DNA from: Alphaproteobacteria bacterium
Lineage (GTDB): Bacteria > Pseudomonadota > Alphaproteobacteria > Rhizobiales > TMED25
Direction of reading: 5' to 3'
Assembly (NCBI GenBank): GCA_963582255.1
Contig: CAUZRD010000002.1
Location: forward strand, 1 to 35,944
DNA length: 35,944 nucleotides
In this document: piece after piece, positions 26,273 to 35,861 of the stretch
Layout of the letters: the number at the start of each line of letters is the position of its first letter
Numbering within the stretch: position 1 is the stretch's first letter
Made by a program: the position numbers and the translations under genes
The notes under the pieces: model-generated
Told to the model about the DNA's origin: nothing
Seen by the model: only the letters and a program-made list of their open reading frames with translations
Databases searched by the model: none

Positions 26273-26348
26273 TCCCCGGTAGCTCAGTTGGTAGAGCAAG
26301 CGGCTGTTAACCGCTGTGTCGTTGGTTCGAGTCCGACCCGGGGAGCCA
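26273..26348 (+). tRNA. tRNA-Asn (anticodon GTT), CCA encoded
   Basis: Folded by hand. Acceptor TCCCCGG/CCGGGGA, D arm GCTC-AGTTGGTA-GAGC, anticodon arm AGCGG-CTGTTAA-CCGCT, variable loop GTGTC, T arm GTTGG-TTCGAGT-CCGAC, discriminator G, then CCA. Total 76 nt. Confidence 0.93.
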
Positions 26349-26373
26349 TATTTCAATCACTTAGCACCTTTTC

Positions 26374-26482
26374 AGCAGCACCAATTGGGTGCTGTTTTTG
26401 TTTTGACGTAGGTATAGTAGATAACTTCTTCCGCCTAGTATTACCACGATCACGAGATTGGCGGTTGTTGGGCGTGTTGACG
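26374..26482 (+). repeat. Direct repeat, left copy (DR-L, ~109 nt) immediately 3' of tRNA-Asn
   Basis: Aligns by eye with 35752-35861. The last ~75 nt (GTATAGTAGATAACTTCTTC.GCCTAGTATTACCA.GATCACGAGATTGGCGGTTGTTGGGCGTGTTGACG) differ at only 2 positions. The first ~35 nt (terminator hairpin) are more diverged and include a 1-nt indel. Confidence 0.9.
26376..26404 (+). terminator. Rho-independent terminator downstream of tRNA-Asn
   Basis: CAGCACC-AATTG-GGTGCTG hairpin followed by TTTTTGTTTT. Confidence 0.7.
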
Positions 26483-26560
26483 TGTTGCTCTAAGAAGTGT
26501 CCAAATGTCCGGGCTGTGGGCGATACTCAAAATAAGTAATCACAACATTGGAGTGGAAAT

Positions 26561-28225
26561 ATGATCATACGTTGGATGCGATCAGGGTTTGTCTGGATAG
26601 TCGGAGCAATCATATTTTCTGGAGTTGGCTTGGGCGGAGTCGCTCATTCCCAAGATGCAGCACCGGTGGTTGTTGCAGTTGAGGATCTCGGAGCCGGCGA
26701 TTGGATGCCGCAGCTCAACTCCGGCACCAACCGCGTCATCTATGATCTCGTAAACGAGACGCTGATCGGCCTCGATGCTGAGCGCAATCATGTGCCGCGT
26801 CTCGCCAAGTCCTGGGATCCATCCGAGGACGGACTGACATGGCATTTCACGCTTCAAGAGGGTATCCAATTCCATGACGGATGGGGTGAGATGACTGCGG
26901 ATGACGTCAAATTTACCTGGGCGATGTACCTACGGGATAGCTCGCTCATGTCGCGCTCCAAGAGGTGGTCGGCGGCCGTTTCTGGCGATGTTGAGAAGAA
27001 CTTCGAGATAGTCAATGACTATGAGTTTGTCCTCCACGGTAACAAGCCGAACTTTCTTTTGCCGGCGCAGCTCTCCTACTCCATTGATACGCTACAGATT
27101 CAATCAAAGAAATACTGGGACACCACTGGCGAAGAAAAGGCGCGGACCCATCTGATCGGAACCGGGCCTTATAGGTTCGTCGGCCAACAGCCAGGAATTG
27201 AGGTTGAACTCGAGGCGGTCGAGAACCACTGGCGGCACACACCGAGCGTCAAGCAACTGATTATAAAAGTGGTGGCGGATAACGCTGCACGGATGGCGCA
27301 GACCCGGACTGGAGAGATTGACGTGGCGGCGATCCCTCCGTCGCTCGTTCCTGAGGCCAAGGCGGTCGGTCTTAAGCTGCTTCAGTCAGAGAATGCTTAT
27401 CAGTGTAACGTTCACTTTGGCGGTATCTATCCGTTTGAGCACCTTGAGAAGGAGGCCTCGGGCCTCCATAAGCCGAACTTGCCGTGGGTCCAGGATGATC
27501 ATCCCGAAAAGGGAATGGCTATCCGCAAGGCTATGTCTCTATCCATTGACCGGCAGCTGATTGCAGACTCGCTGCTTTCGGGATTGGGAAAGCCCGTGCG
27601 GGCGCCACTGCAGCTTGCTTTTATCACCGACAAGACCTTTGAGCTTGAGGTTTTCGATCCAGAGCAGGCCAAAAACTTGATGGAAGAAGGCGGGTATCCC
27701 GATGGCTTTACCATCGATATGCCAATTTTCAAGCAGGGTGGACGCTTAGCCGCTGTTGACGTCTCCAACGCCCTCGCGGGCATGTGGGAAGAGCACCTTG
27801 GCATCAAAGTCAACCGCGCACCGATGGAATTTAAGCCGACTTTCCGTGCTCATATCGAGAAAAAAACCACGGGCGATCCATTGCCCGGTTCGGACGCTGT
27901 TGGCAAGGTCTGGGGGTTCTGCCAGAACCCTGCCGATGAGCCGGCCGAACAGCTTTCGGGAGGGATTATGCCTGGCGGCTCGTTCACGAATTTCCACCAC
28001 GAGGCGGCGCAGGAACTAATTCCAAAGATCCTGCGGACCGGTAATGCCGAAGAGCGCACGCTCCTGCATGCCGAGCTTGGGCGCCGACTCGCAGAGGATT
28101 ACACCTCCTACGGCGTCGTCGCACCGAGTGCTCCGTGGGTCATAAGCGAGAGGGTTGCGAGCCTTCCTGTCCTGCCAGGTAGGGGAGAGTTCACAAATCT
28201 TGAATATCTTGAACTTAACGAGTGA
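26561..28225 (+). CDS. ABC transporter substrate-binding protein, family 5 (peptide/nickel/opine; DppA/OppA/GsiB-like)
   Basis: 554 aa with an N-terminal signal peptide (WIVGAIIFSGVGLGGVAHSQD). PRLAKSWDPSEDGLTWHFTLQEGIQFHDGWGEMTADDVKFTW is the SBP_bac_5 signature region. An RBS GGAG precedes the ATG. Confidence 0.9.
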   Translation: MIIRWMRSGFVWIVGAIIFSGVGLGGVAHSQDAAPVVVAVEDLGAGDWMPQLNSGTNRVIYDLVNETLIGLDAERNHVPRLAKSWDPSEDGLTWHFTLQEGIQFHDGWGEMTADDVKFTWAMYLRDSSLMSRSKRWSAAVSGDVEKNFEIVNDYEFVLHGNKPNFLLPAQLSYSIDTLQIQSKKYWDTTGEEKARTHLIGTGPYRFVGQQPGIEVELEAVENHWRHTPSVKQLIIKVVADNAARMAQTRTGEIDVAAIPPSLVPEAKAVGLKLLQSENAYQCNVHFGGIYPFEHLEKEASGLHKPNLPWVQDDHPEKGMAIRKAMSLSIDRQLIADSLLSGLGKPVRAPLQLAFITDKTFELEVFDPEQAKNLMEEGGYPDGFTIDMPIFKQGGRLAAVDVSNALAGMWEEHLGIKVNRAPMEFKPTFRAHIEKKTTGDPLPGSDAVGKVWGFCQNPADEPAEQLSGGIMPGGSFTNFHHEAAQELIPKILRTGNAEERTLLHAELGRRLAEDYTSYGVVAPSAPWVISERVASLPVLPGRGEFTNLEYLELNE

Positions 28226-28266
28226 CTGACATATCGGTCATTTTTGACAAAAATGCCTAAGAGGTT

Positions 28267-28300
28267 TGCAGGCAGGATGGCTAATGCCTTCCTGTCTGCA
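28267..28300 (+). promoter_or_regulatory. Strong intercistronic stem-loop between the SBP and permease genes
   Basis: TGCAGGCAGGA pairs with TCCTGTCTGCA (11 bp, one G-U). After one mismatch, GGC pairs with GCC around a TAAT loop. It is followed by TCTCTT. This could be an attenuator or an mRNA-stabilising hairpin, as seen after many SBP genes. Confidence 0.5.
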
Positions 28301-28368
28301 TCTCTTCCGCCTGGACGAATCGGGGTGATCTCGAAAATCAGGTCACCCAGTCAAAGGGCGAAGGAACA

Positions 28369-29292
28369 ATGATTCGCTACATCCTGGAACGTCTACTGCA
28401 ATCGATAGTCAGCTTAATCGGTGTCACTATTATCGTATTTGCAATGGTGAATCTAACGGGTGATCCTTCACTCGTGATGTTGCCGGAGGACGCGACGGCT
28501 GAGCAGATTGCGATGGTTCGCCATGAGCTCGGTCTCGATCGGCCGCTCGTCGTAAGATACCTGCAGTATTTGGGTGGCCTACTCCAGGGTGACCTCGGAA
28601 CGTCGATACGCGGTCTAGCCTCCGTGCCAGTCGGGAAGATTATTGCGGAGCGCCTGCCAGCGACTCTGGAGCTCGGCGCGGCAGCGGTTTTCCTGACGTT
28701 CCTCGTCGGGATCCCGCTCGGCGTCTATGCCGGGTACTGGAAGGACAGCCCGCTCGACAAGGGAGCGCGGATCTTTGCAGTGCTTGGCCAGTCCGCTCCG
28801 CCGTTTTGGGTTGGCATCATCCTGATCGTAATCTTCTCTATCCATCTTGGTTGGCTTCCGGCGGGCGGCCGTGGGGGATTGCTGCACATCATCCTGCCGG
28901 CCAGCACCATGGCTTGGGCGTCGATCGCGGGCGTCACGCGACTGGTCCGGTCCAATCTGCTCGAGACCCTCGACACCGACTACGTCCGGTTCTGCCGGAT
29001 CAAGGGGCAGTCGGAGACGAATGTTGTCTGGAAGCACGGGCTGAGGAACGCCGGTATTCCCGTGATGACATTCAGCGCCATCATTATGGCGAGCCTTATC
29101 ACCGGCTCGGTGATCACCGAGACCATCTTCACCTGGCCGGGGCTCGGCAAACTTCTGATCGACTCGATCGGCTTTCGCGATTTGCCGGTTATCCAAGGTT
29201 GCATTCTTGTGTTTGCGGCGGTCTATCTCGCCCTCAACCTCGCGGTTGACCTGCTCTACGCCTATCTCAATCCAAGGGTGAGGGTCGGCTGA
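28369..29292 (+). CDS. ABC transporter permease (DppB/OppB-like)
   Basis: 307 aa. MIRYILERLLQSIVSLIGVTIIVF is the typical OppB/DppB N-terminus. It is polytopic, with an EAA-like loop DYVRFCRIKGQSE..V..HGLRNA. Confidence 0.9.
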   Translation: MIRYILERLLQSIVSLIGVTIIVFAMVNLTGDPSLVMLPEDATAEQIAMVRHELGLDRPLVVRYLQYLGGLLQGDLGTSIRGLASVPVGKIIAERLPATLELGAAAVFLTFLVGIPLGVYAGYWKDSPLDKGARIFAVLGQSAPPFWVGIILIVIFSIHLGWLPAGGRGGLLHIILPASTMAWASIAGVTRLVRSNLLETLDTDYVRFCRIKGQSETNVVWKHGLRNAGIPVMTFSAIIMASLITGSVITETIFTWPGLGKLLIDSIGFRDLPVIQGCILVFAAVYLALNLAVDLLYAYLNPRVRVG

Positions 29293-30194
29293 TGAGCATG
29301 CACTCGGCGCCAGTTGGTATGCCCGGCCTGTCGGCGATTGTCCGCGGTGTCATTCGCGGTACTAGGGAAATGCCGCCGACCGTGCTGGTTTGTGTGTTCC
29401 TACTTGTGACGCTTGTGCTTAGCGCCATGTTTGCACCGCTTCTAGTCGACCACTCTCCAACCTACCAGGACCTTATTCGTAGGATGCAGCCGCCGGCATG
29501 GGTCGAGGGCGGCTCTGCAGACTATCTTCTGGGAACTGACGGTCTCGGGCGCGACATGCTTAGCCGGCTGCTGTATGGCGGGCGGATCTCGCTCGCGGTC
29601 GCCGGACTTGCGATGCTGTTCGGGGCTAGCTTTGGAACGCTACTTGGCCTGTGGGCCGGGTATTTTGGGGGGATTGTTGATGCTGTGGTCATGCGTGTGG
29701 TTGATGTCCTTCTGGCATTGCCGACGCTGCTTGTGGCCATCGTGCTTGCGGTCGCGATCGGCCCTTCGTTCTGGAACGTGGTCTTCGTCGTGTCATTTCT
29801 GCTGTGGCCTAAGATCACCCGACAGATTCGTGGCGAAGTCCTTGCCGTCAAGGAGCAGGACTATGTCAAATATGCGGAAGGTATTGGTCGCAGCAGGCTG
29901 TCGGTCATGCTGCGGCATCTGCTCCCGAATGTGACTCCGAGTTTGGTTGTCGTTGCGACGCTCGAGCTGGGCCACGTGGTGCTGCTCGAGGCGTCTCTCA
30001 GTTTCATTGGGGCGGGCATTCCGCCCCCAAATCCATCATGGGGCGTGATGGTTGACGAAGGTCGGGCACTTCTGGCGACGGGCTGGTGGCTGTCGCTGTT
30101 CCCCGGACTTGCAATCATGGTGACCGTGCTCATTTTCAACACGCTTGGAGATTGGCTGCGCGATATCCTAGATCCGCGACTAAAACTCAGATGA
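29292..30194 (+). CDS. ABC transporter permease (DppC/OppC-like)
   Basis: 300 aa with LGTDGLGRDMLSRLLYGGRISL (OppC N-terminal motif) and EQDYVKYAEGIGRSRLSVMLRHLLPN (EAA loop). The start overlaps the previous stop by 1 nt. Confidence 0.9.
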   Translation: MSMHSAPVGMPGLSAIVRGVIRGTREMPPTVLVCVFLLVTLVLSAMFAPLLVDHSPTYQDLIRRMQPPAWVEGGSADYLLGTDGLGRDMLSRLLYGGRISLAVAGLAMLFGASFGTLLGLWAGYFGGIVDAVVMRVVDVLLALPTLLVAIVLAVAIGPSFWNVVFVVSFLLWPKITRQIRGEVLAVKEQDYVKYAEGIGRSRLSVMLRHLLPNVTPSLVVVATLELGHVVLLEASLSFIGAGIPPPNPSWGVMVDEGRALLATGWWLSLFPGLAIMVTVLIFNTLGDWLRDILDPRLKLR

Positions 30195-31219
30195 GGATGT
30201 CGAGCGACAGCGTGGGTGCAGATGCCGCCACTCCGGCTCTTGAGGTTAAGAACCTTTGTGTGAGTACGGGCAGGAAACGCGACAAGGGTAGGCAACTTCT
30301 CGACGGGATCTCGTTCAAGCTCATGCCCGGGGAGGCGCTCGGCGTTGTCGGTGAGTCGGGCTCAGGGAAATCTCTCACGAGCCTCGCTATCTTGAGGCTT
30401 CTGCCCAGGGGCCTAAGTGTCGACGCGGGCGAAATCCTGCTCGGCGGAGTTGATGTTCTCGCGATGTCGGCGCGTGACCTGCGTCAGGCGCGGGGCAGAA
30501 AATTTTCTATGGTTCTGCAGGATCCGATGAGTTCGCTCGATCCCTGCTTCCAAATACGCTCGCAGATGCGCGAGGCGCTTCAGAACGTGGTGTCGGCTTC
30601 AGGAAAATCGCGGCGGGAAATTGATGAAATTTGCGAGGACCTGCTGCAGCGGGTTAGGATGCCTGAGCCCGACGTTGTGCTGCGAAAGTATCCCCACGAA
30701 CTGAGTGGTGGTATGCGCCAGCGCGTTACTAGCGCAATCGCTCTGTCGGGAGGGCCAGATGTTCTGATCGCCGACGAACCGACGACCGCGCTTGATGTCA
30801 CGACTCAGGCCCTCTACTTGTCGATGCTGAAGCAGCTCCAGATCTCCACGGGTTTCTCGTTGATGTTCATCAGCCATGATCTTCTTCTGGTGAAGCAGAT
30901 GTGTGACCGGCTGATCGTCATGTATGCAGGACAGGTTGTGGAGGAAGGACCGCTTGGCGAGGTCCTGGCCAGTCCTCAGCATCCCTATACGCGTGCGCTG
31001 CTGCGATCGATCCCGAAGCCTGACGTGGATGCAGAGCTCTTTCCTATCGATGGCTATCCGCCAGACCCGGCCGCCTATCCACCCGGATGCAGGTTTGCAC
31101 CGAGATGCGCACATGCCCGTGATGCCTGTGATGGGGGAGTTCCAGACGCCGCGCCGCGTTCGGCAAGTGGCCATGTGGCGCGGTGCATAGGCACCGCAGA
31201 CGGCGGATGGGTCGCGTGA
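30191..31219 (+). CDS. ABC transporter ATP-binding protein (DppD/OppD-like)
   Basis: Walker A GESGSGKS, signature LSGGMRQR, Walker B LIADEPTTALD, and HPYTRALL plus a Cys-rich C-terminal oligopeptide-ABC domain (CRFAPRCAHARDAC...C). I took the start as the ATG at 30191, overlapping the permease stop (ATGA). Confidence 0.9.
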   Translation: MRMSSDSVGADAATPALEVKNLCVSTGRKRDKGRQLLDGISFKLMPGEALGVVGESGSGKSLTSLAILRLLPRGLSVDAGEILLGGVDVLAMSARDLRQARGRKFSMVLQDPMSSLDPCFQIRSQMREALQNVVSASGKSRREIDEICEDLLQRVRMPEPDVVLRKYPHELSGGMRQRVTSAIALSGGPDVLIADEPTTALDVTTQALYLSMLKQLQISTGFSLMFISHDLLLVKQMCDRLIVMYAGQVVEEGPLGEVLASPQHPYTRALLRSIPKPDVDAELFPIDGYPPDPAAYPPGCRFAPRCAHARDACDGGVPDAAPRSASGHVARCIGTADGGWVA

Positions 31220-32295
31220 CTGTCGCAAATTCACAGAGAGACACAAGTCTTGTCGGAACTCGGGTATTGAACCCGTCTCCTGCCACTCCTCTTATCGAAC
31301 TTGATCGTGTGGTCGTAGACTTCGAGAAGCGTCAGGCAGTGTTTCAGCGCGGCCGCCCCGACCTCCTGCGCGCGGTCGACGAGGTCAGCCTTTCGATAGC
31401 GAACGGGGAATCTCTTGGCCTGGTTGGAGAGAGCGGTTCGGGAAAGACGACCGTCGGCCGCTTGGCGGCGGGGATGCTGGCGCCAACCAGCGGTATTGTT
31501 CGCGCGAATGGGCAGGTGCTGGGACAGGATCGCGGTGCGCTTGCCTCCTACCGTCGAAACGTCCAGATCGTGTTTCAGGACCCTTATTCATCACTCGATC
31601 CGCGAATGCGGGTGGGGAGTATTATTGCCGAGCCTCTGTTCGGGCGCGAAGGAGCGTGGTCGACACGGTCCGCTCGAAAAGAGAGGGTCGATGAGCTGCT
31701 GAATCTCGTTGGGCTCCTGCCGGATGCAGCTAGCATGTATCCGCACCAGTTCAGCGGCGGACAGCGCCAGCGCATCGCCCTTGCGAGGGCGCTGAGCTCG
31801 GATCCAAGGCTAATCATACTTGATGAACCGACTTCGGCGCTCGACGTTTCAATCCGCGCCCAGATTCTCAAACTCCTGAAAGATCTGCAGCGGAGGCTGA
31901 ACGTTTCCTACCTCGTCATCTCCCATGATCTCGGGTCGGTCGCCTATCTTGTCTCGCGCGTTGCTGTCATGTATCGGGGTCGGATCGTCGAACAGGGCTC
32001 GCCGGCGCAGATCTATCGCACGCCACAGCATCCCTATTCGCGTTTGTTGCTGGCGAGCGTGCCGCGCGAAGATACGAGTTTCATCATGACCGAGGATATT
32101 GCGGTCAACGAGCCCGAAGCCATAGATGCCGGGACGGGGTGTGGATTCCGCAACCGATGCAATCTACGCTGTCAGCTCCCCGAACCGTCGCGTTGTGAAG
32201 ATACCCGCCCGAGACTTCTCGCGGCGACTGATAACCATTTCGTCGCCTGCCATGGCATAGGCGCGCGGAGTGGCGTGGACAACGGGGAGAGCTGA
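31207..32295 (+). CDS. ABC transporter ATP-binding protein (DppF/OppF-like)
   Basis: Walker A GESGSGKTT, signature FSGGQRQR, Walker B LILDEPTSALD, and HPYSRLLL plus a Cys-rich tail (CGFRNRCNLRC...C). The start is the ATG at 31207 or the GTG at 31216; both overlap the preceding stop. Confidence 0.9.
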   Translation: MGRVTVANSQRDTSLVGTRVLNPSPATPLIELDRVVVDFEKRQAVFQRGRPDLLRAVDEVSLSIANGESLGLVGESGSGKTTVGRLAAGMLAPTSGIVRANGQVLGQDRGALASYRRNVQIVFQDPYSSLDPRMRVGSIIAEPLFGREGAWSTRSARKERVDELLNLVGLLPDAASMYPHQFSGGQRQRIALARALSSDPRLIILDEPTSALDVSIRAQILKLLKDLQRRLNVSYLVISHDLGSVAYLVSRVAVMYRGRIVEQGSPAQIYRTPQHPYSRLLLASVPREDTSFIMTEDIAVNEPEAIDAGTGCGFRNRCNLRCQLPEPSRCEDTRPRLLAATDNHFVACHGIGARSGVDNGES

Positions 32296-32309
32296 CATGA
32301 TCGCGCGCC

Positions 32310-32492
32310 ATGTTTGCGAGCGCAAATCAGGCGCTGGGTAGTTTCATCGACGAAGGCTTAATTTTCTTTACGCTGCAGTGGATCGATGAGGAGTTTGAGA
32401 AGATTCGCGGCCACTCGCCTGCCTGCACGTCGGTGCTTGTGCACCGCGGTGGAAAGCCAAATTTGAATGAGGAGCTAGTATGTCGGAATTGA
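32310..32492 (+). CDS. Hypothetical small protein (60 aa), uncertain
   Basis: This ORF fills the gap between the ATPase gene and the next gene and overlaps the latter's start by 13 nt. I recognise no family. It could equally be a non-coding spacer. Confidence 0.25.
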   Translation: MFASANQALGSFIDEGLIFFTLQWIDEEFEKIRGHSPACTSVLVHRGGKPNLNEELVCRN

Positions 32493-33406
32493 TACGTGTC
32501 TGTCACTCGGTCCACGGGGCGGCCAATGCTATCATGGCGCTCGGCGTCGCATCGGGATTTTTCGCTGATGTCGGACTGAACGTCTTCATGGAGGAGATGC
32601 CCCGAACAGGGGACGCCATGAGGAAACTCATCGATGGGACAACCGAGTTTGTCGTCGTCGGTGCTGTGCCCGTCATCAATGCTGCACGTGCGGGCCATCA
32701 TCCGTTGATCGTCATGAGCATTGAAGCAGATAATGTTTTTGCAGTGATGGGTTCAAGTTCGATCCGCTCGCCGAACGACCTGAAGGGCAAGATAATTGCC
32801 ATTAGTGGACGACACGAGCAGGACGACATCATGGTGCGTCGCGCTCTTGCGCATTGGGGAATTGATCCAGACAATGATGTGACGTTCGAGGCGCGGGGTA
32901 GCCGCGGGAAATGCTGGGATGCGATTATTTCCGGCGAGGCCGTTGCGATGTGTGCAACTATTCCTCAGCCGATTCTTGCACGAGCAAACGGGCTGCCTGT
33001 CCTCATGGATTTTGCGAATTTGCACGAGCCCTATCAAGCGGGCTCAGTGGTGACGACGCGGGCCTACGCCGATGCAAATTCGGACACTGTGACCCGCTTT
33101 CTTGAGGGCCAGCTTCGCGCTGTCCGTCAGTTTCAGAGCGATTTCGAGTTGTCGCTGCCGCATTTGAAGGCCCGGAGCAAACTCGATGATGTCGAAGTTT
33201 TGCGTGAAACGCATCGATTGTTCGGTGAGGCCGCGGAGGACTACATCCCCAATCCGGCGGCTTCGGCCACGGTGTTGTGTAATCTCGCCGCCGCCATCGG
33301 TGAGCCGATTGATATTGATTTGGACCGGATCATCGATGCCAGTTTCGCGACTGCGCTTGAAGGCCGCAAGCCGTACCCGTCCGTTGGCCGCGCCCCGAGC
33401 ACCTGA
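32480..33406 (+). CDS. NMT1/THI5-like (SsuA/TauA/ThiY-fold) binding-protein-domain protein without signal peptide, paralog 1
   Basis: 308 aa. AGGAG lies 5 nt before the ATG. The protein starts directly with the first beta-strand and helix of the type-2 periplasmic-binding fold (IRVCHSVHGAANAIMALGVASGFFADVGLNV), with no leader. The family call is from the sequence pattern, not a search. Confidence 0.75.
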   Translation: MSELIRVCHSVHGAANAIMALGVASGFFADVGLNVFMEEMPRTGDAMRKLIDGTTEFVVVGAVPVINAARAGHHPLIVMSIEADNVFAVMGSSSIRSPNDLKGKIIAISGRHEQDDIMVRRALAHWGIDPDNDVTFEARGSRGKCWDAIISGEAVAMCATIPQPILARANGLPVLMDFANLHEPYQAGSVVTTRAYADANSDTVTRFLEGQLRAVRQFQSDFELSLPHLKARSKLDDVEVLRETHRLFGEAAEDYIPNPAASATVLCNLAAAIGEPIDIDLDRIIDASFATALEGRKPYPSVGRAPST

Positions 33407-33434
33407 GTTTTCTCGTGAATTCAAGGCGGGTTTG

Positions 33435-33521
33435 TTACACCCTCTTTAACATCTCCAACATCCTAAACACCCCCCGCAGCAGCTTCAGGATGTCCTCGTC
33501 TAAATACCGTTTCCCTGTCAT
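33435..33521 (-). pseudogene. Possible relic of an IS3-family transposase OrfA N-terminus (28 codons)
   Basis: Hand translation gives MTGKRYLDEDILKLLRGVFRMLEMLKRV*. The first 16 residues fit the IS3/IS407 OrfA start pattern (K-R-Y/F-x-D/E-E-x-I-x-x-x-L-R). The rest does not fit. The match is very short. Confidence 0.25.
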
Positions 33522-33668
33522 CTCCCATCCCCCTTCTCAGACCACAATAGTGGCCCAGTTTTAAGGGGGAAGGACTACTGCTTAAACTCAAACTAAGGAT
33601 GTGCCAGGCTCTCCGATCCTGAGACTATTAGCTTATCTTAAGATATTTGAACCCGGACATGCTACGAG

Positions 33669-34142
33669 CTACTTCTTGGACTCTTTTCGTTTGATCCATT
33701 GGATCAAATCCGCTGGTTCGAGCCGAGCCAGCGGGCCATCACTGTAGCTGGAAAATATGACCTTGCCGTCGGGGTTCAAAATGAATTCCGAGGGCTGGAT
33801 GATCGAGCGTCGCTCTTCCCAGAAGGAGCCAAGCATATGGGCGTTGGAGCGTGTCACACCATAGCCAACCGAAAACGAAACTTCGGTGGAAACTTCCTTA
33901 GCCTTGTCAATTGGATCAACACTAGCGCTGACCAATATGCGAGCGCCAAGGGCGTCAAGTTCAGGCTTAATTTTCTCGAGGCCGACTAACTGACGGCGAC
34001 AGTATGGTCACCAATGGCCGCGATAAAACAATATCACCCGATATTTCGCGTCCATGCTGTCTGGCAGTTCCAATGTTGAACCGTCAACCAAATTAAGCTT
34101 CATCCATGGGAAACAGTCGCCAATGCCAAGCTTTTTCGTCAT
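33669..34142 (-). CDS. Peroxiredoxin-like thiol:disulfide oxidoreductase (AhpC/TSA, PRX_like2-type) with in-frame TGA at 34010-34008; candidate selenoprotein (U-P-Y-C)
   Basis: ORFs 34008..34214 and 33669..33935 are in the same frame, separated only by one TGA and 24 sense codons. Read-through gives 157 aa: MTKKLGIGDCFPWMKLNLVDGSTLELPDSMDAKYRVILFYRGHW-[TGA]-PYCRRQLVGLEKIKPELDALGARILVSASVDPIDKAKE... In the family motif FYRGhWCPxC the TGA replaces the first Cys. AAGGA lies 8 nt upstream of the ATG at 34142. Confidence 0.65.
33981..33997 (-). ncRNA. Candidate bacterial SECIS-like hairpin within the coding sequence
   Basis: The minus-strand RNA GCCGUCAGUUAGUCGGC starts 11 nt after the UGA. It has a GCCG/CGGC stem, a U-U mismatch, a C-G pair, and an apical loop AGUUA with G as its second nucleotide. 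I folded it by hand. The stem is short. Confidence 0.35.
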
Positions 34143-34546
34143 GAAAATTATCCTTCGATTGACGCTTTGAAGTGAGTCAATATCGATACCACATTCCAAC
34201 TCTACGGCGCCCACTTTTTGAAGGCAATCGCTTAATCAAAACCATTTTCTGATGTTCTTATCCAACTGAGCTTCGTAAGTTCAATAGTCGTTTTCTCTCG
34301 ATTATTAGTTCCCACGTTGCTGCTGAACAATCCGGCAGAAGCTACCTGGCGCAATTGTCAGCGTCCAAGCATCGAGGAATTCCAATTGTCCTGATAATGG
34401 CTGCATGTCAGCGCGTTGATGCGTAGAAAGTCGACAAACGAGCTTAAATATATGAAATCAAATGACTACAGATACCTCTCAGCCGATTCCCAAAAAAGTG
34501 GAAAGTATATGTGTTTCCAATAAGGCTCCTACTTCTTGATCACACT

Positions 34547-35473
34547 TCAAGCGCCGGGCGCGATTTGGGTGGTGCTGTAAGGTGCACGGCCCTCCAATGC
34601 GATGGCAAATTTAGGATCAATGATCTTTTCGAGATCTACATCGAGGGGTTTGCCAAGGGTCTCCGACAAGTTGCGCAGGACATTGGCCGACGCCACCGGA
34701 TTGGGGATGTAGTCCTCCGCGGCTTCACCAAACAATCGATGTGTTTCACGCAAAACTTCGACATCATCGAGTTTGCTCAGGGTGATAAGATGGGGCAAGG
34801 CCGCCTCGAAATCGCTCTGAAAAAGTCGAACCGCACGCAGTTGGCCGGCAAGAAAACGGTGCACATTGTCGGGCTTGTCGTCAATATAGGCGCGCGTTGT
34901 TCCGATGCAGCCAGCCTGTAATGGCTCATGAAGTTCGGCGAAATCTTTCAGCACTGGCAGGCCGTTGGCGCGTGCAAGGATTGGCTGGGGAATAGTCGCA
35001 CACATTGCTGCGGCCTCGCCTGAGACGATTGCCTTCCAGGTATCGCCCCGGCTGCCATACTCGACGAAGATGACCTCCCTGTTCGGGTCGATTCCCCACT
35101 CGGAAAGGGCGCGGTGAATCATCACATTGTCCTGTTCGCCGTGGCCGGTGATGGCGATAGTCTTGCCCCTCAGATCTTCGGGCGAGCTGATCGATCGTGC
35201 CCCAATGATAGCGAACACGTTCTCTGCCTCGATGTTCATGACAATGACAGGGTAATGGCCGGCATATGCGGCACTCAAAATTGTCGCGGCACCGACAACC
35301 ACAAACTCCGTTGTGCCCGCTATTAGCTTTTTGACGGCATCTCCAGATCGAGGAATCTCCTCCATGATAACATCGAGTCCTTCCTCGGCGAAGTACCCGG
35401 AGGCGACGCCGAGCGCCATGATTGCATTGGCCGCTCCGTACGCCGAGTAACAGACGCGTATTATCTCAGCCAT
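34547..35473 (-). CDS. NMT1/THI5-like binding-protein-domain protein without signal peptide, paralog 2
   Basis: Roughly 70% identical by eye to the 32480..33406 product over the full length (MAEIIRVCYSAYGAANAIMALGVASGYFAEEGLDV...). I set the start at Met18 of ORF 34547..35524, which aligns with the paralog 1 start. Confidence 0.8.
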   Translation of the reverse strand: MAEIIRVCYSAYGAANAIMALGVASGYFAEEGLDVIMEEIPRSGDAVKKLIAGTTEFVVVGAATILSAAYAGHYPVIVMNIEAENVFAIIGARSISSPEDLRGKTIAITGHGEQDNVMIHRALSEWGIDPNREVIFVEYGSRGDTWKAIVSGEAAAMCATIPQPILARANGLPVLKDFAELHEPLQAGCIGTTRAYIDDKPDNVHRFLAGQLRAVRLFQSDFEAALPHLITLSKLDDVEVLRETHRLFGEAAEDYIPNPVASANVLRNLSETLGKPLDVDLEKIIDPKFAIALEGRAPYSTTQIAPGA

Positions 35474-35530
35474 GCAATAGACTCCCCCAAGCATCAAAGC
35501 CGTTGGCACCTGTCCAGCTGACATTTTTGC

Positions 35531-35559
35531 CCTGATGCAGCATGTATTGCTTCATCAGG
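35531..35559. promoter_or_regulatory. Near-perfect 12-bp inverted repeat upstream of paralog 2
   Basis: CCTGATGCAGCA-TGTAT-TGCTTCATCAGG (11 of 12 positions pair), 58 nt upstream of the ATG at 35473. It could be an operator or a 5'-UTR hairpin. Confidence 0.35.
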
Positions 35560-35751
35560 ATGCAAACAAGACTCAGTGCCTACAATATTTCATAACTGTC
35601 CAAAAAAACCGCAGCGCGTTACCGCCAAGATTCAACTACTTTTCTTTGTCATCTAGTCCGGAAATAGCGTTGACTGCATCGACAGGTCAGCCGGTTGCCA
35701 TGTTAGTCGGATAGTTATTCGCTTGAACCTGCGGCAACAAACCTTGCCACA

Positions 35752-35861
35752 AGCAGCACCGATTTAGGTGCTATTTTTGTTTTGGCACGGGTATAGTAGA
35801 TAACTTCTTCTGCCTAGTATTACCAAGATCACGAGATTGGCGGTTGTTGGGCGTGTTGACG
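35752..35861 (+). repeat. Direct repeat, right copy (DR-R, ~110 nt)
   Basis: Matches 26374-26482. It includes a second copy of the terminator-like hairpin (AGCACC-GATTTA-GGTGCT followed by ATTTTTGTTTT), although no plus-strand gene reads into it. Confidence 0.9.

Follow-up and report, generated by a model that had tools for sequence, protein, structure and literature searches.

A block of about 9.3 kb that lies beside a tRNA gene, is bounded by long direct repeats and carries no recombinase gene raises the question of how it was inserted, and of whether it can still move. The block was identified in a stretch of 35,944 nt from a marine alphaproteobacterium with 49.6% GC; this window, an entire contig, stops 83 nt past the right repeat, the region beyond having been confirmed from other assemblies. 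The left anchor of the block is a tRNA-Asn (GTT) gene on the forward strand (26273-26348; Rfam RF00005, 65 bits), the sole tRNA-Asn identified by ARAGORN in the assembly. The repeat pair proposed in the first-pass annotation was recovered by blastn as two copies in the same, forward orientation, R-left (26374-26482) and R-right (35752-35861), aligning over 110 nt with 90.9% identity (E 1.5e-37), and a repeat-finding search of the window returned a shorter version of the same pair (26385-26482 and 35764-35861, 98 nt at 92%). The internal structure that the first-pass annotation had described holds up equally well. The distal 72-75 nt of the copies differ at 2 positions, versus 8 (one of them an indel) in the proximal ~37 nt, and each copy opens with a hairpin and a T-run (hairpin and T-run at 26374-26396 on the left and 35755-35772 on the right). 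In R-left, after this terminator segment (26374-26404 in full) come a 6-nt spacer, which is variable, and a block of 72 nt that is conserved (26411-26482); in R-right, an orphan hairpin and T-run is likewise followed by the 72-nt block. The right hairpin terminates nothing, because it sits between a divergent NMT1-like gene on the reverse strand and an M24 peptidase gene on the forward strand, the latter lying on contig C70, ~200 nt downstream of R-right. R-left remains the terminator of tRNA-Asn, now ahead of a foreign operon. As had also been noticed, the repeat lies wholly 3' of the tRNA: it begins at 26374, the last position of the tRNA being 26348, which leaves a gap of 25 nt to the repeat and of 134 nt to the foreign DNA. 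No tRNA-like sequence was found upstream of R-right. Reconstruction by parsimony from two strains indicates that, at the divergence of the strains, the repeat copies were still identical at all but 4 of their 110 sites, which points to a single duplication; gene conversion between the copies is not needed to account for the pattern, the additional differences all being lineage-specific single changes.

The composition of the DNA between the repeats was computed against the genome average, and the GC enrichment suspected from the sequence proved to be distinct. The GC content of positions 26483-33482 is 57.5%; the genome, in 847 windows of 7 kb, averages 49.8% (sd 1.6), which yields a z-score of +4.9. 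The third-position GC content (GC3) of all eight island genes is 0.58-0.73, versus 0.49±0.06 for the genome and 0.41-0.52 for the flanking genes (uvrA, ssb, dksA and four genes to the right). This shift in composition coincides exactly with the repeats, and the cumulative GC skew climbs across the whole window with no switch. The island encodes a peptide ABC importer of the Dpp/Opp type, along with a pair of cytoplasmic NMT1-like proteins and a redoxin that is probably a selenoprotein. The importer operon, on the forward strand, starts with a family-5 solute-binding protein (SBP) of the peptide/nickel type (26561-28225; Pfam SBP_bac_5, 5e-60; GC3 0.63) and continues with two permease genes (28369-29292 and 29292-30194; Pfam BPD_transp_1, OppC_N; GC3 0.73 and 0.65) and two ATPase genes with an oligo_HPY C-terminal domain (~30191-31219 and ~31207-32295; Pfam, gene calls in L013). 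Next, on the same strand, comes a first NMT1/THI5-like gene (32480-33406); its product lacks a signal peptide and shares 72% identity with the NMT1 gene of relative L025. A second NMT1/THI5-like gene (34547-35524), on the reverse strand, is expressed and is the ortholog (85% aa identity) of the gene that relatives carry upstream of SBP.

Judged by SBP identity, the nearest relatives of the ABC operon stand at 85%, 80% and 75%. Those at 85% and 80% reside on contigs of uniformly 58-60% GC, with different neighbours, which argues that the block is foreign to the genome analyzed here; none of these contigs carries the tRNA-Asn, dksA or the repeat. The SBP gene is missing from family members, and a search of 300 genomes sampled from the class returned no SBP homolog at E<=1e-60. 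A plasmid origin was considered and dismissed, the only matches being distant (~66%) ABC ATPases on rhizobial plasmids.

Gene order in the relatives suggests how the block might have been inserted. In L110 (SBP 75%) and L025 (SBP 80%) the SBP gene is preceded by a divergently oriented NMT1-like gene, which directly adjoins it in L110, where NMT1 is on the reverse and SBP on the forward strand, and is separated from it by one gene in L025. In the window, the ortholog of this gene is the last of the island and the SBP gene is the first. The placement of the NMT1 ortholog at the far end, versus its adjacency to the SBP gene in relatives, makes the island a circular permutation of the donor order, and linking the island ends via one repeat copy gives the donor order back. 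Such a permutation is in keeping with a circle having integrated through a single crossover, an event that would also generate the repeats. The permutation argument draws on two relatives, since the contigs of the closest (85%, L023/L024) contain no sequence 5' of the SBP gene; SBP relatives at a greater distance (69% and 64%) have no NMT1 neighbour. Two features of the repeat count against integration of a circle: it is absent from the intergenic regions of the relatives, and it does not extend into the tRNA as the att sites of classical tRNA-targeting integrases do. When the island-edge spacers were compared with the NMT1-SBP intergenic region of the relatives, a single exact identity of 12 nt was obtained, which is non-significant after correction for 20 tests.

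We estimate at roughly 0.6 the probability that the 9.3 kb between the repeats are a horizontally acquired metabolic island, derived from a lineage of ~58-60% GC, that entered as a circle through a single crossover; of this, the circular intermediate and the type of crossover are what we infer from the arrangement. The circle would have carried, between its NMT1-like and SBP genes, a 110-nt match to the sequence 3' of tRNA-Asn, and a Campbell-type single crossover at this match would have placed a copy of the repeat at either end of the insert. This step may have been performed by a recombinase that has since been lost, by one acting in trans, or by RecA, and would have left the right copy as an orphan ahead of the native M24 peptidase gene. 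An IS3 element would later have inserted into the island and then been deleted. Today the island is fixed in the genome of the species, expressed and, on this reading, no longer mobile. The putative IS relic that had been suspected from a 28-codon stub is real: it corresponds to the left end of an IS3-family element (33475-33575, reverse strand), comprising the upstream end and ~17 codons of orfA, and is 78.6% identical (E 1e-9) to the start of orfA on Sulfitobacter plasmid NZ_CP139711, with further matches to left ends on Roseibium and Ruegeria plasmids (roseobacter plasmids). The 28-aa stub itself has no Pfam match. This internal relic is the sole IS trace, with no IS-like sequence at either island edge. 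The reported absence of a recombinase gene was also corroborated, as no integrase or transposase ORF was found in the island after listing ORFs of at least 40 aa and scanning the plausible ones. The island had been called decayed, a term that fits its mobility functions alone, since the cargo genes remain intact and are transcribed.

The locus has the same layout wherever it was recovered. Both island junctions are crossed by individual contigs, up to 53 kb long, in at least five independent assemblies (ENA k141 and JGI, from other samples and assemblers), and all 15 contigs with the terminal island gene (9 displayed, 6 listed as similar) show the same organization; four of them (L112, L113, L114 and L116) are colinear at 99% from ssb/dksA to the M24 peptidase gene, and a single junction is covered in each of L013, L107 and L108. 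The six DNA runs whose coverage was usable present this arrangement and no empty site, and depth in run X3 is even (left flank 13.5, island 14.3, island right end 14.7, right flank 13.5). The contigs of ten runs contain no deletion or circle joint; their 31-mer graphs, unable to resolve 35-72 identical bases, are blind to the difference between an integrated island and an excised circle plus empty site, and hence a minority excised form is possible. The searched collections hold no genus-level relative (the top DksA match among JGI metagenome contigs is 78%, and the closest M24 peptidase relative 62%). The empty site that the first-pass annotation had proposed to look for in related genomes was not found in those of the family, which are too distant, do not have dksA followed by tRNA-Asn and lack an M24 peptidase ortholog (25-30% identity). 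With no empty site, circular junction or sister species found, the insertion event itself remains unobserved. Relatives carrying both repeats and the same cargo, which the first-pass annotation would have read as ancestral core, are found among strains of the species only. The SBP gene, the permeases and the second NMT1-like gene are represented among the RNA contigs, with the SBP as the top-expressed island gene (contig depth up to 32, versus 9 for dksA). At the strain level, the island is thus anchored, fixed and transcribed in situ in every strain sampled. Present-day mobility is unsupported: the trans-mobilization or cassette exchange once suggested has left no sign in the 15 contigs and six DNA runs.

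These data also bear on whether the region might simply be ancestral core DNA of odd composition, or a chimeric contig in a metagenome-assembled genome. The assembly is split into 245 contigs with an estimated contamination of 5.5%, the window ends shortly after R-right, and all known strains carry the region. Nevertheless, the junctions are crossed in independent assemblies, island and flank depth are equal in several runs, the relatives of the cargo are located elsewhere in genomes of matching composition, and family members are devoid of the SBP gene. The chimera version is effectively refuted, and this explanation as a whole is very improbable. A further proposal is that the repeats are working attL and attR sites of a CIME-like remnant, mobilizable in cis or in trans by a recombinase that is encoded elsewhere or is incoming. 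The flanking direct repeats, the foreign cargo and the lack of a recombinase gene of its own are all in keeping with such a remnant, as is the near-invariance of the 72-nt block across copies and strains (0-2 differences) in comparison with the 8-11% variation on both of its sides, which includes the hypervariable spacer or leader that separates R-left from the SBP gene (26483-26560, forward strand; 8 of 78 sites). Moreover, the assembly is only 85% complete, so that a cognate recombinase could have been missed. Against this, the level of conservation seen in the block is normal for intergenic DNA here (0.8-3.3%), its flanks being the unusual part, and the evenness of depth and arrangement reported above comes with no joint that skips the island. 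The first-pass annotation had envisaged a recombinase gene located elsewhere beside a copy of the repeat, but no third copy was found by blastn in the 2.17-Mb assembly, and the only two Phage_integrase matches genome-wide, on contigs C82 and C53, are not near a repeat. Two exact-pattern scans of 185,579 species genomes (GTDB) returned no match to the repeat, which among 124 fetched loci was absent except in those of the same species. We therefore regard a mobilizable remnant as quite unlikely.

The same conserved block with variable flanks could alternatively reflect a functional module, composed of the terminator and a leader or regulatory block, that was copied so that the importer and M24 operons share control. 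Both copies lie upstream of forward-strand operons whose functions are related, one serving peptide uptake and the other encoding an Xaa-Pro-type peptidase, and the regulatory region common to the donor lineages is missing here. One RNA contig of run X30 (26407-26592, depth 3x) extends from the block into the SBP gene, and one of run X25 runs over the right block and 165 nt of the right flank toward the M24 gene, but the depth of RNA contigs over the repeat blocks is low (3-6) and DNA carry-over is possible. No match to a sigma-70 promoter was identified in or after the block. A structured RNA or riboswitch in the block was likewise rejected, with no Rfam match, a fold no better than that of shuffled sequence (z ~0 on both strands) and two substitutions in R-right that are non-compensatory. 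A shared module would also leave unexplained why the copies mark the edges of the compositional shift, and why a useless terminator was duplicated, and we deem it unlikely. An idea that combines regulation with integration, and that we find more doubtful still than either the shared module or the mobilizable remnant, is that the 110 nt would constitute a recombinase-free landing pad at which circles enter and leave by RecA single crossover, with the terminator and the transcribed 72-nt block lending a foreign operon the host control shared with the peptidase operon; if true, this would amount to regulatory capture by integration.

Insertion of a foreign circle by one crossover, the reading that we favour, makes this an ordinary genomic island of a known kind, which opens no new mechanism. 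In islands inserted at tRNA genes by tyrosine integrases, the att core usually includes the 3' end of the tRNA, and the integrase gene sits next to one att site. The island resembles these classical cases in its location beside a tRNA, foreign composition, transport cargo, direct repeats and IS remnant, and departs from them in that its repeat starts past the tRNA instead of including its 3' end, in its lack of an integrase gene, in the length of the repeat (110 nt) and in its presence in every strain seen. Campbell-type single crossover via short homology is known with suicide plasmids in the laboratory. The island is similar in that the insert has the homology at both of its ends and a gene order that is circularly permuted with respect to the source, and dissimilar in that it would be a natural event, with a host-like 110 nt on the incoming circle. 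Additive flexible genomic islands located by tRNA genes in streamlined marine bacteria vary between strains. The present one shares with them a marine free-living host, a transporter cassette beside a tRNA and foreign cargo, but is invariant in all samples examined. It also differs from a composite transposon, with no IS copies at its ends and one internal IS3 relic. Xer-dependent integrative elements (IMEX) have dif-like sites of 28 nt on their flanks, located at the replication terminus; the cumulative GC skew in the window shows no switch. CIMEs are described mainly in streptococci. They derive by decay from ICEs or IMEs, having lost the genes for integration and transfer while retaining attL and attR (PMC5704250). 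Like them, the island is flanked by repeats and made up of cargo only, with no recombination or transfer genes; unlike them, it shows no tandem accretion, and neither a cognate element nor an integrase was found for its candidate att repeats.

The island provides a well-bounded case of a small-genome marine bacterium gaining a nutrient-uptake module from a compositionally different lineage, in which the integration scar is still readable and circularization recovers the source gene order. It also illustrates that repeats located by a tRNA without an integrase need not signal a mobile element, which is of practical use when annotating genomes and when studying gene flow among uncultured marine alphaproteobacteria. 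The remaining gene of the island, on the reverse strand at 33669-34214, encodes an AhpC/TSA-type redoxin (Pfam AhpC-TSA, 3e-15; GC3 0.58). The gene was not considered a pseudogene, because its single in-frame TGA falls at the active-site position (W-U-P-Y-C, with TGA translated as U) and a tRNA-SeC gene is present in the assembly (C4:19504-19596); it is probably a selenoprotein gene.

The assembly, of which the window is one complete contig, comprises 2.17 Mb in 245 contigs at 49.6% GC (85% complete, 5.5% estimated contamination); among the genomes compared it is the sole representative of its genus, and its family relatives are distant. The source runs containing the window sequence are seawater metagenomes. 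Its sole tRNA-Asn (GTT), at 26273-26348, stands beside the left copy of a 110-nt direct repeat (26374-26482 and 35752-35861; 90.9% identity, E 1.5e-37), of which no further copy was identified elsewhere in the 2.17-Mb assembly or in 185,579 species genomes. Both copies open with a hairpin and T-run, and they differ from each other at 2 positions in the distal 72-75 nt and at 8 in the proximal ~37 nt. The distal 72-nt block yielded neither an Rfam nor a promoter-like match, and it folds no better than shuffled sequence. The right hairpin lies between divergent genes, an NMT1-like gene (34547-35524, minus strand) and an M24 peptidase gene on the plus strand of contig C70, which continues to the right of the window, and there is therefore nothing for it to terminate, as the first-pass annotation had held.

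The same annotation had described repeats beside tRNA-Asn with GC-rich genes between them, a description upheld by base composition. The segment 26483-33482 has 57.5% GC versus a genome mean of 49.8% (sd 1.6; 847 windows of 7 kb; z = +4.9), a value equalled by one other region of the genome alone, positions 1-6000 of contig C25. GC3 ranges from 0.58 to 0.73 in all eight genes between the repeats (genome-wide 0.49±0.06) and from 0.41 to 0.52 in the flanking genes, namely uvrA, ssb and dksA to the left of the island and four to its right; the compositional shift thus coincides with the two repeats. A sample of 300 genomes from the class contained no homolog of the island's solute-binding protein (SBP) at E≤1e-60. 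In a large protein collection, SBP relatives at 85% and 80% lie on contigs uniformly of 58-60% GC, and one at 64% lies on a uniform contig of 63-70% GC; a relative at 75% (locus L110) also has neighbors different from those in the window, and dksA, tRNA-Asn and the repeat are absent from the contigs of all these relatives. In composition the operon thus resembles other lineages and not the host in which it now resides. We conclude that the block between the repeats is foreign and was probably integrated across the repeat. The C25 region, at the contig start, holds a second Dpp/Opp-type ABC cluster of ~58% GC (permease, permease, SBP, ATPase, ATPase), which is probably another acquired block.

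The island encodes a Dpp/Opp-type importer, composed of a family-5 SBP (26561-28225, plus strand), two permeases and two ATPases, as well as two NMT1/THI5-like proteins without signal peptides that share 69% identity and are encoded in inverted orientation to each other (paralog 1, 32480-33406, plus strand; paralog 2, 34547-35524, minus strand). Between the latter lies an AhpC/TSA redoxin gene (33669-34214, minus strand) with one in-frame TGA, at the active-site W-x-P-Y-C position (FYRGHW-U-PYC). Because the genome encodes a tRNA-SeC (C4:19504-19596), this reading frame is probably a selenoprotein gene carried on the island. A pseudogene was considered and rejected, given the single TGA at that position and the tRNA-SeC. 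The suspected IS relic proved to be the left end and first codons (orfA start) of an IS3-family element (33475-33575), with 78.6% identity to a Sulfitobacter plasmid copy (E 1e-9) and ~79% identity to IS3-type orfA starts on plasmids of Roseibium and Ruegeria. It is the island's sole trace of a mobility gene, and it sits at the join of the part holding the ABC genes and paralog 1 and the part holding the redoxin gene and paralog 2. Nitrospinaceae MAGs (L121-L123) have a gene whose NMT1-like product shares 80% identity with paralog 2; it adjoins an rve_3 transposase gene, and the ABC operon is missing there. Hence the NMT1-like gene also moves independently of the operon, and between phyla.

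L110 has an NMT1-like gene immediately upstream of, and divergent from, the SBP gene, and in L025, the locus of the 80% SBP relative, the two are separated by one gene. The L025 NMT1-like gene shows 85% identity to paralog 2 and only 72% to paralog 1. In the window's island the SBP gene comes first and paralog 2 last, and joining its right end to its left end via one repeat copy gives the relatives' order: NMT1 (minus), ~415 nt, SBP (plus). A single Campbell-type crossover joining a circle to the chromosome would produce such a permuted order. We prefer this putative origin of the repeats mainly because end-joining restores the relatives' gene order, an argument that rests on two relatives. 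Contigs of the closest SBP relative begin just upstream of the SBP gene, and no significant similarity was detected between the island's spacers and the relatives' NMT1-SBP spacer. L110, L025 and the locus of a third relative, L023, have in common a conserved ~65-nt element carrying the palindrome TTTAGTCGGCCGACTAAA, ~110 nt ahead of their SBP genes; it is probably an operator, and the window's island lacks it. The island works like a tRNA-linked genomic island whose integrase was lost or never present, and resembles a CIME as defined in PMC5704250, its repeats being putative att sites. In classical tRNA-integrating islands, by contrast, the repeat takes in the tRNA end and an integrase is present; since both defining features fail here, the island was not filed among them.

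While the foreign island of the first-pass annotation stands, its mobile or exchangeable cassette found no evidence. Contigs from other samples and assemblers (L112, L113, L114 and L116) are colinear at ~99%, running from ssb through the island to the M24 peptidase operon; L013, L107 and L108 span a single junction each; and an alternative arrangement occurs in none of the 15 contigs carrying paralog 2. Contig depths in sequencing run X3 were 13.5 for the left flank, 14.3 for the island, 14.7 for its right end and 13.5 for the right flank, with the shared 72-nt piece at 25.9, equivalent to two copies. No joint bypassing the island was found in any run compared, although the 31-mer contig graphs could miss a minority excised form. 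The genome was searched for a recombinase beside the repeat elsewhere, as the first-pass annotation had suggested, and the only two Phage_integrase-family genes, on contigs C82 and C53, are away from any repeat. At ~32366 and ~34200, contigs from several independent assemblies and runs (L013, L107, L108 and pieces of run X2) break off, pointing to strain heterogeneity or low coverage locally, around the redoxin gene and the spacer between ATPase and paralog 1 genes. Metatranscriptome contigs cover the SBP gene, permeases and paralog 2, with a depth of up to 32 for the SBP gene versus ~9 for dksA. One RNA contig extends from 26407 across the block into the SBP gene, and a second comprises the right block plus 165 nt in the direction of the M24 gene.

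The evolution of the repeat was followed by comparing the window (strain A) with L112 and similar contigs (strain B). Between strains, the 72-nt block has no variable site in the left copy and 1 in the right, the proximal parts vary at 4/37 and 3/38 sites and the spacer 26483-26560 at 8/78, against 0.8-3.3% in ordinary intergenic DNA of the region. By parsimony, the copies differed at just 4 of 110 sites at the strain split, and all later changes are lineage-specific. This sequence pattern fits a single duplication that somewhat predates the split of the strains, and it requires no gene conversion and no strong constraint. Strain divergence peaks at 26374-26410, 26483-26614 and 35752-35789 (8-11% versus 0.4-3% elsewhere), hot spots that directly flank the invariant 72-nt block on both sides and extend 54 nt into the SBP gene. 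Further differences of strain B are a 25-nt insertion between ssb and dksA (window ~25566) and a 7-nt duplication (TTCACCG) upstream of tRNA-Asn (window ~26199).
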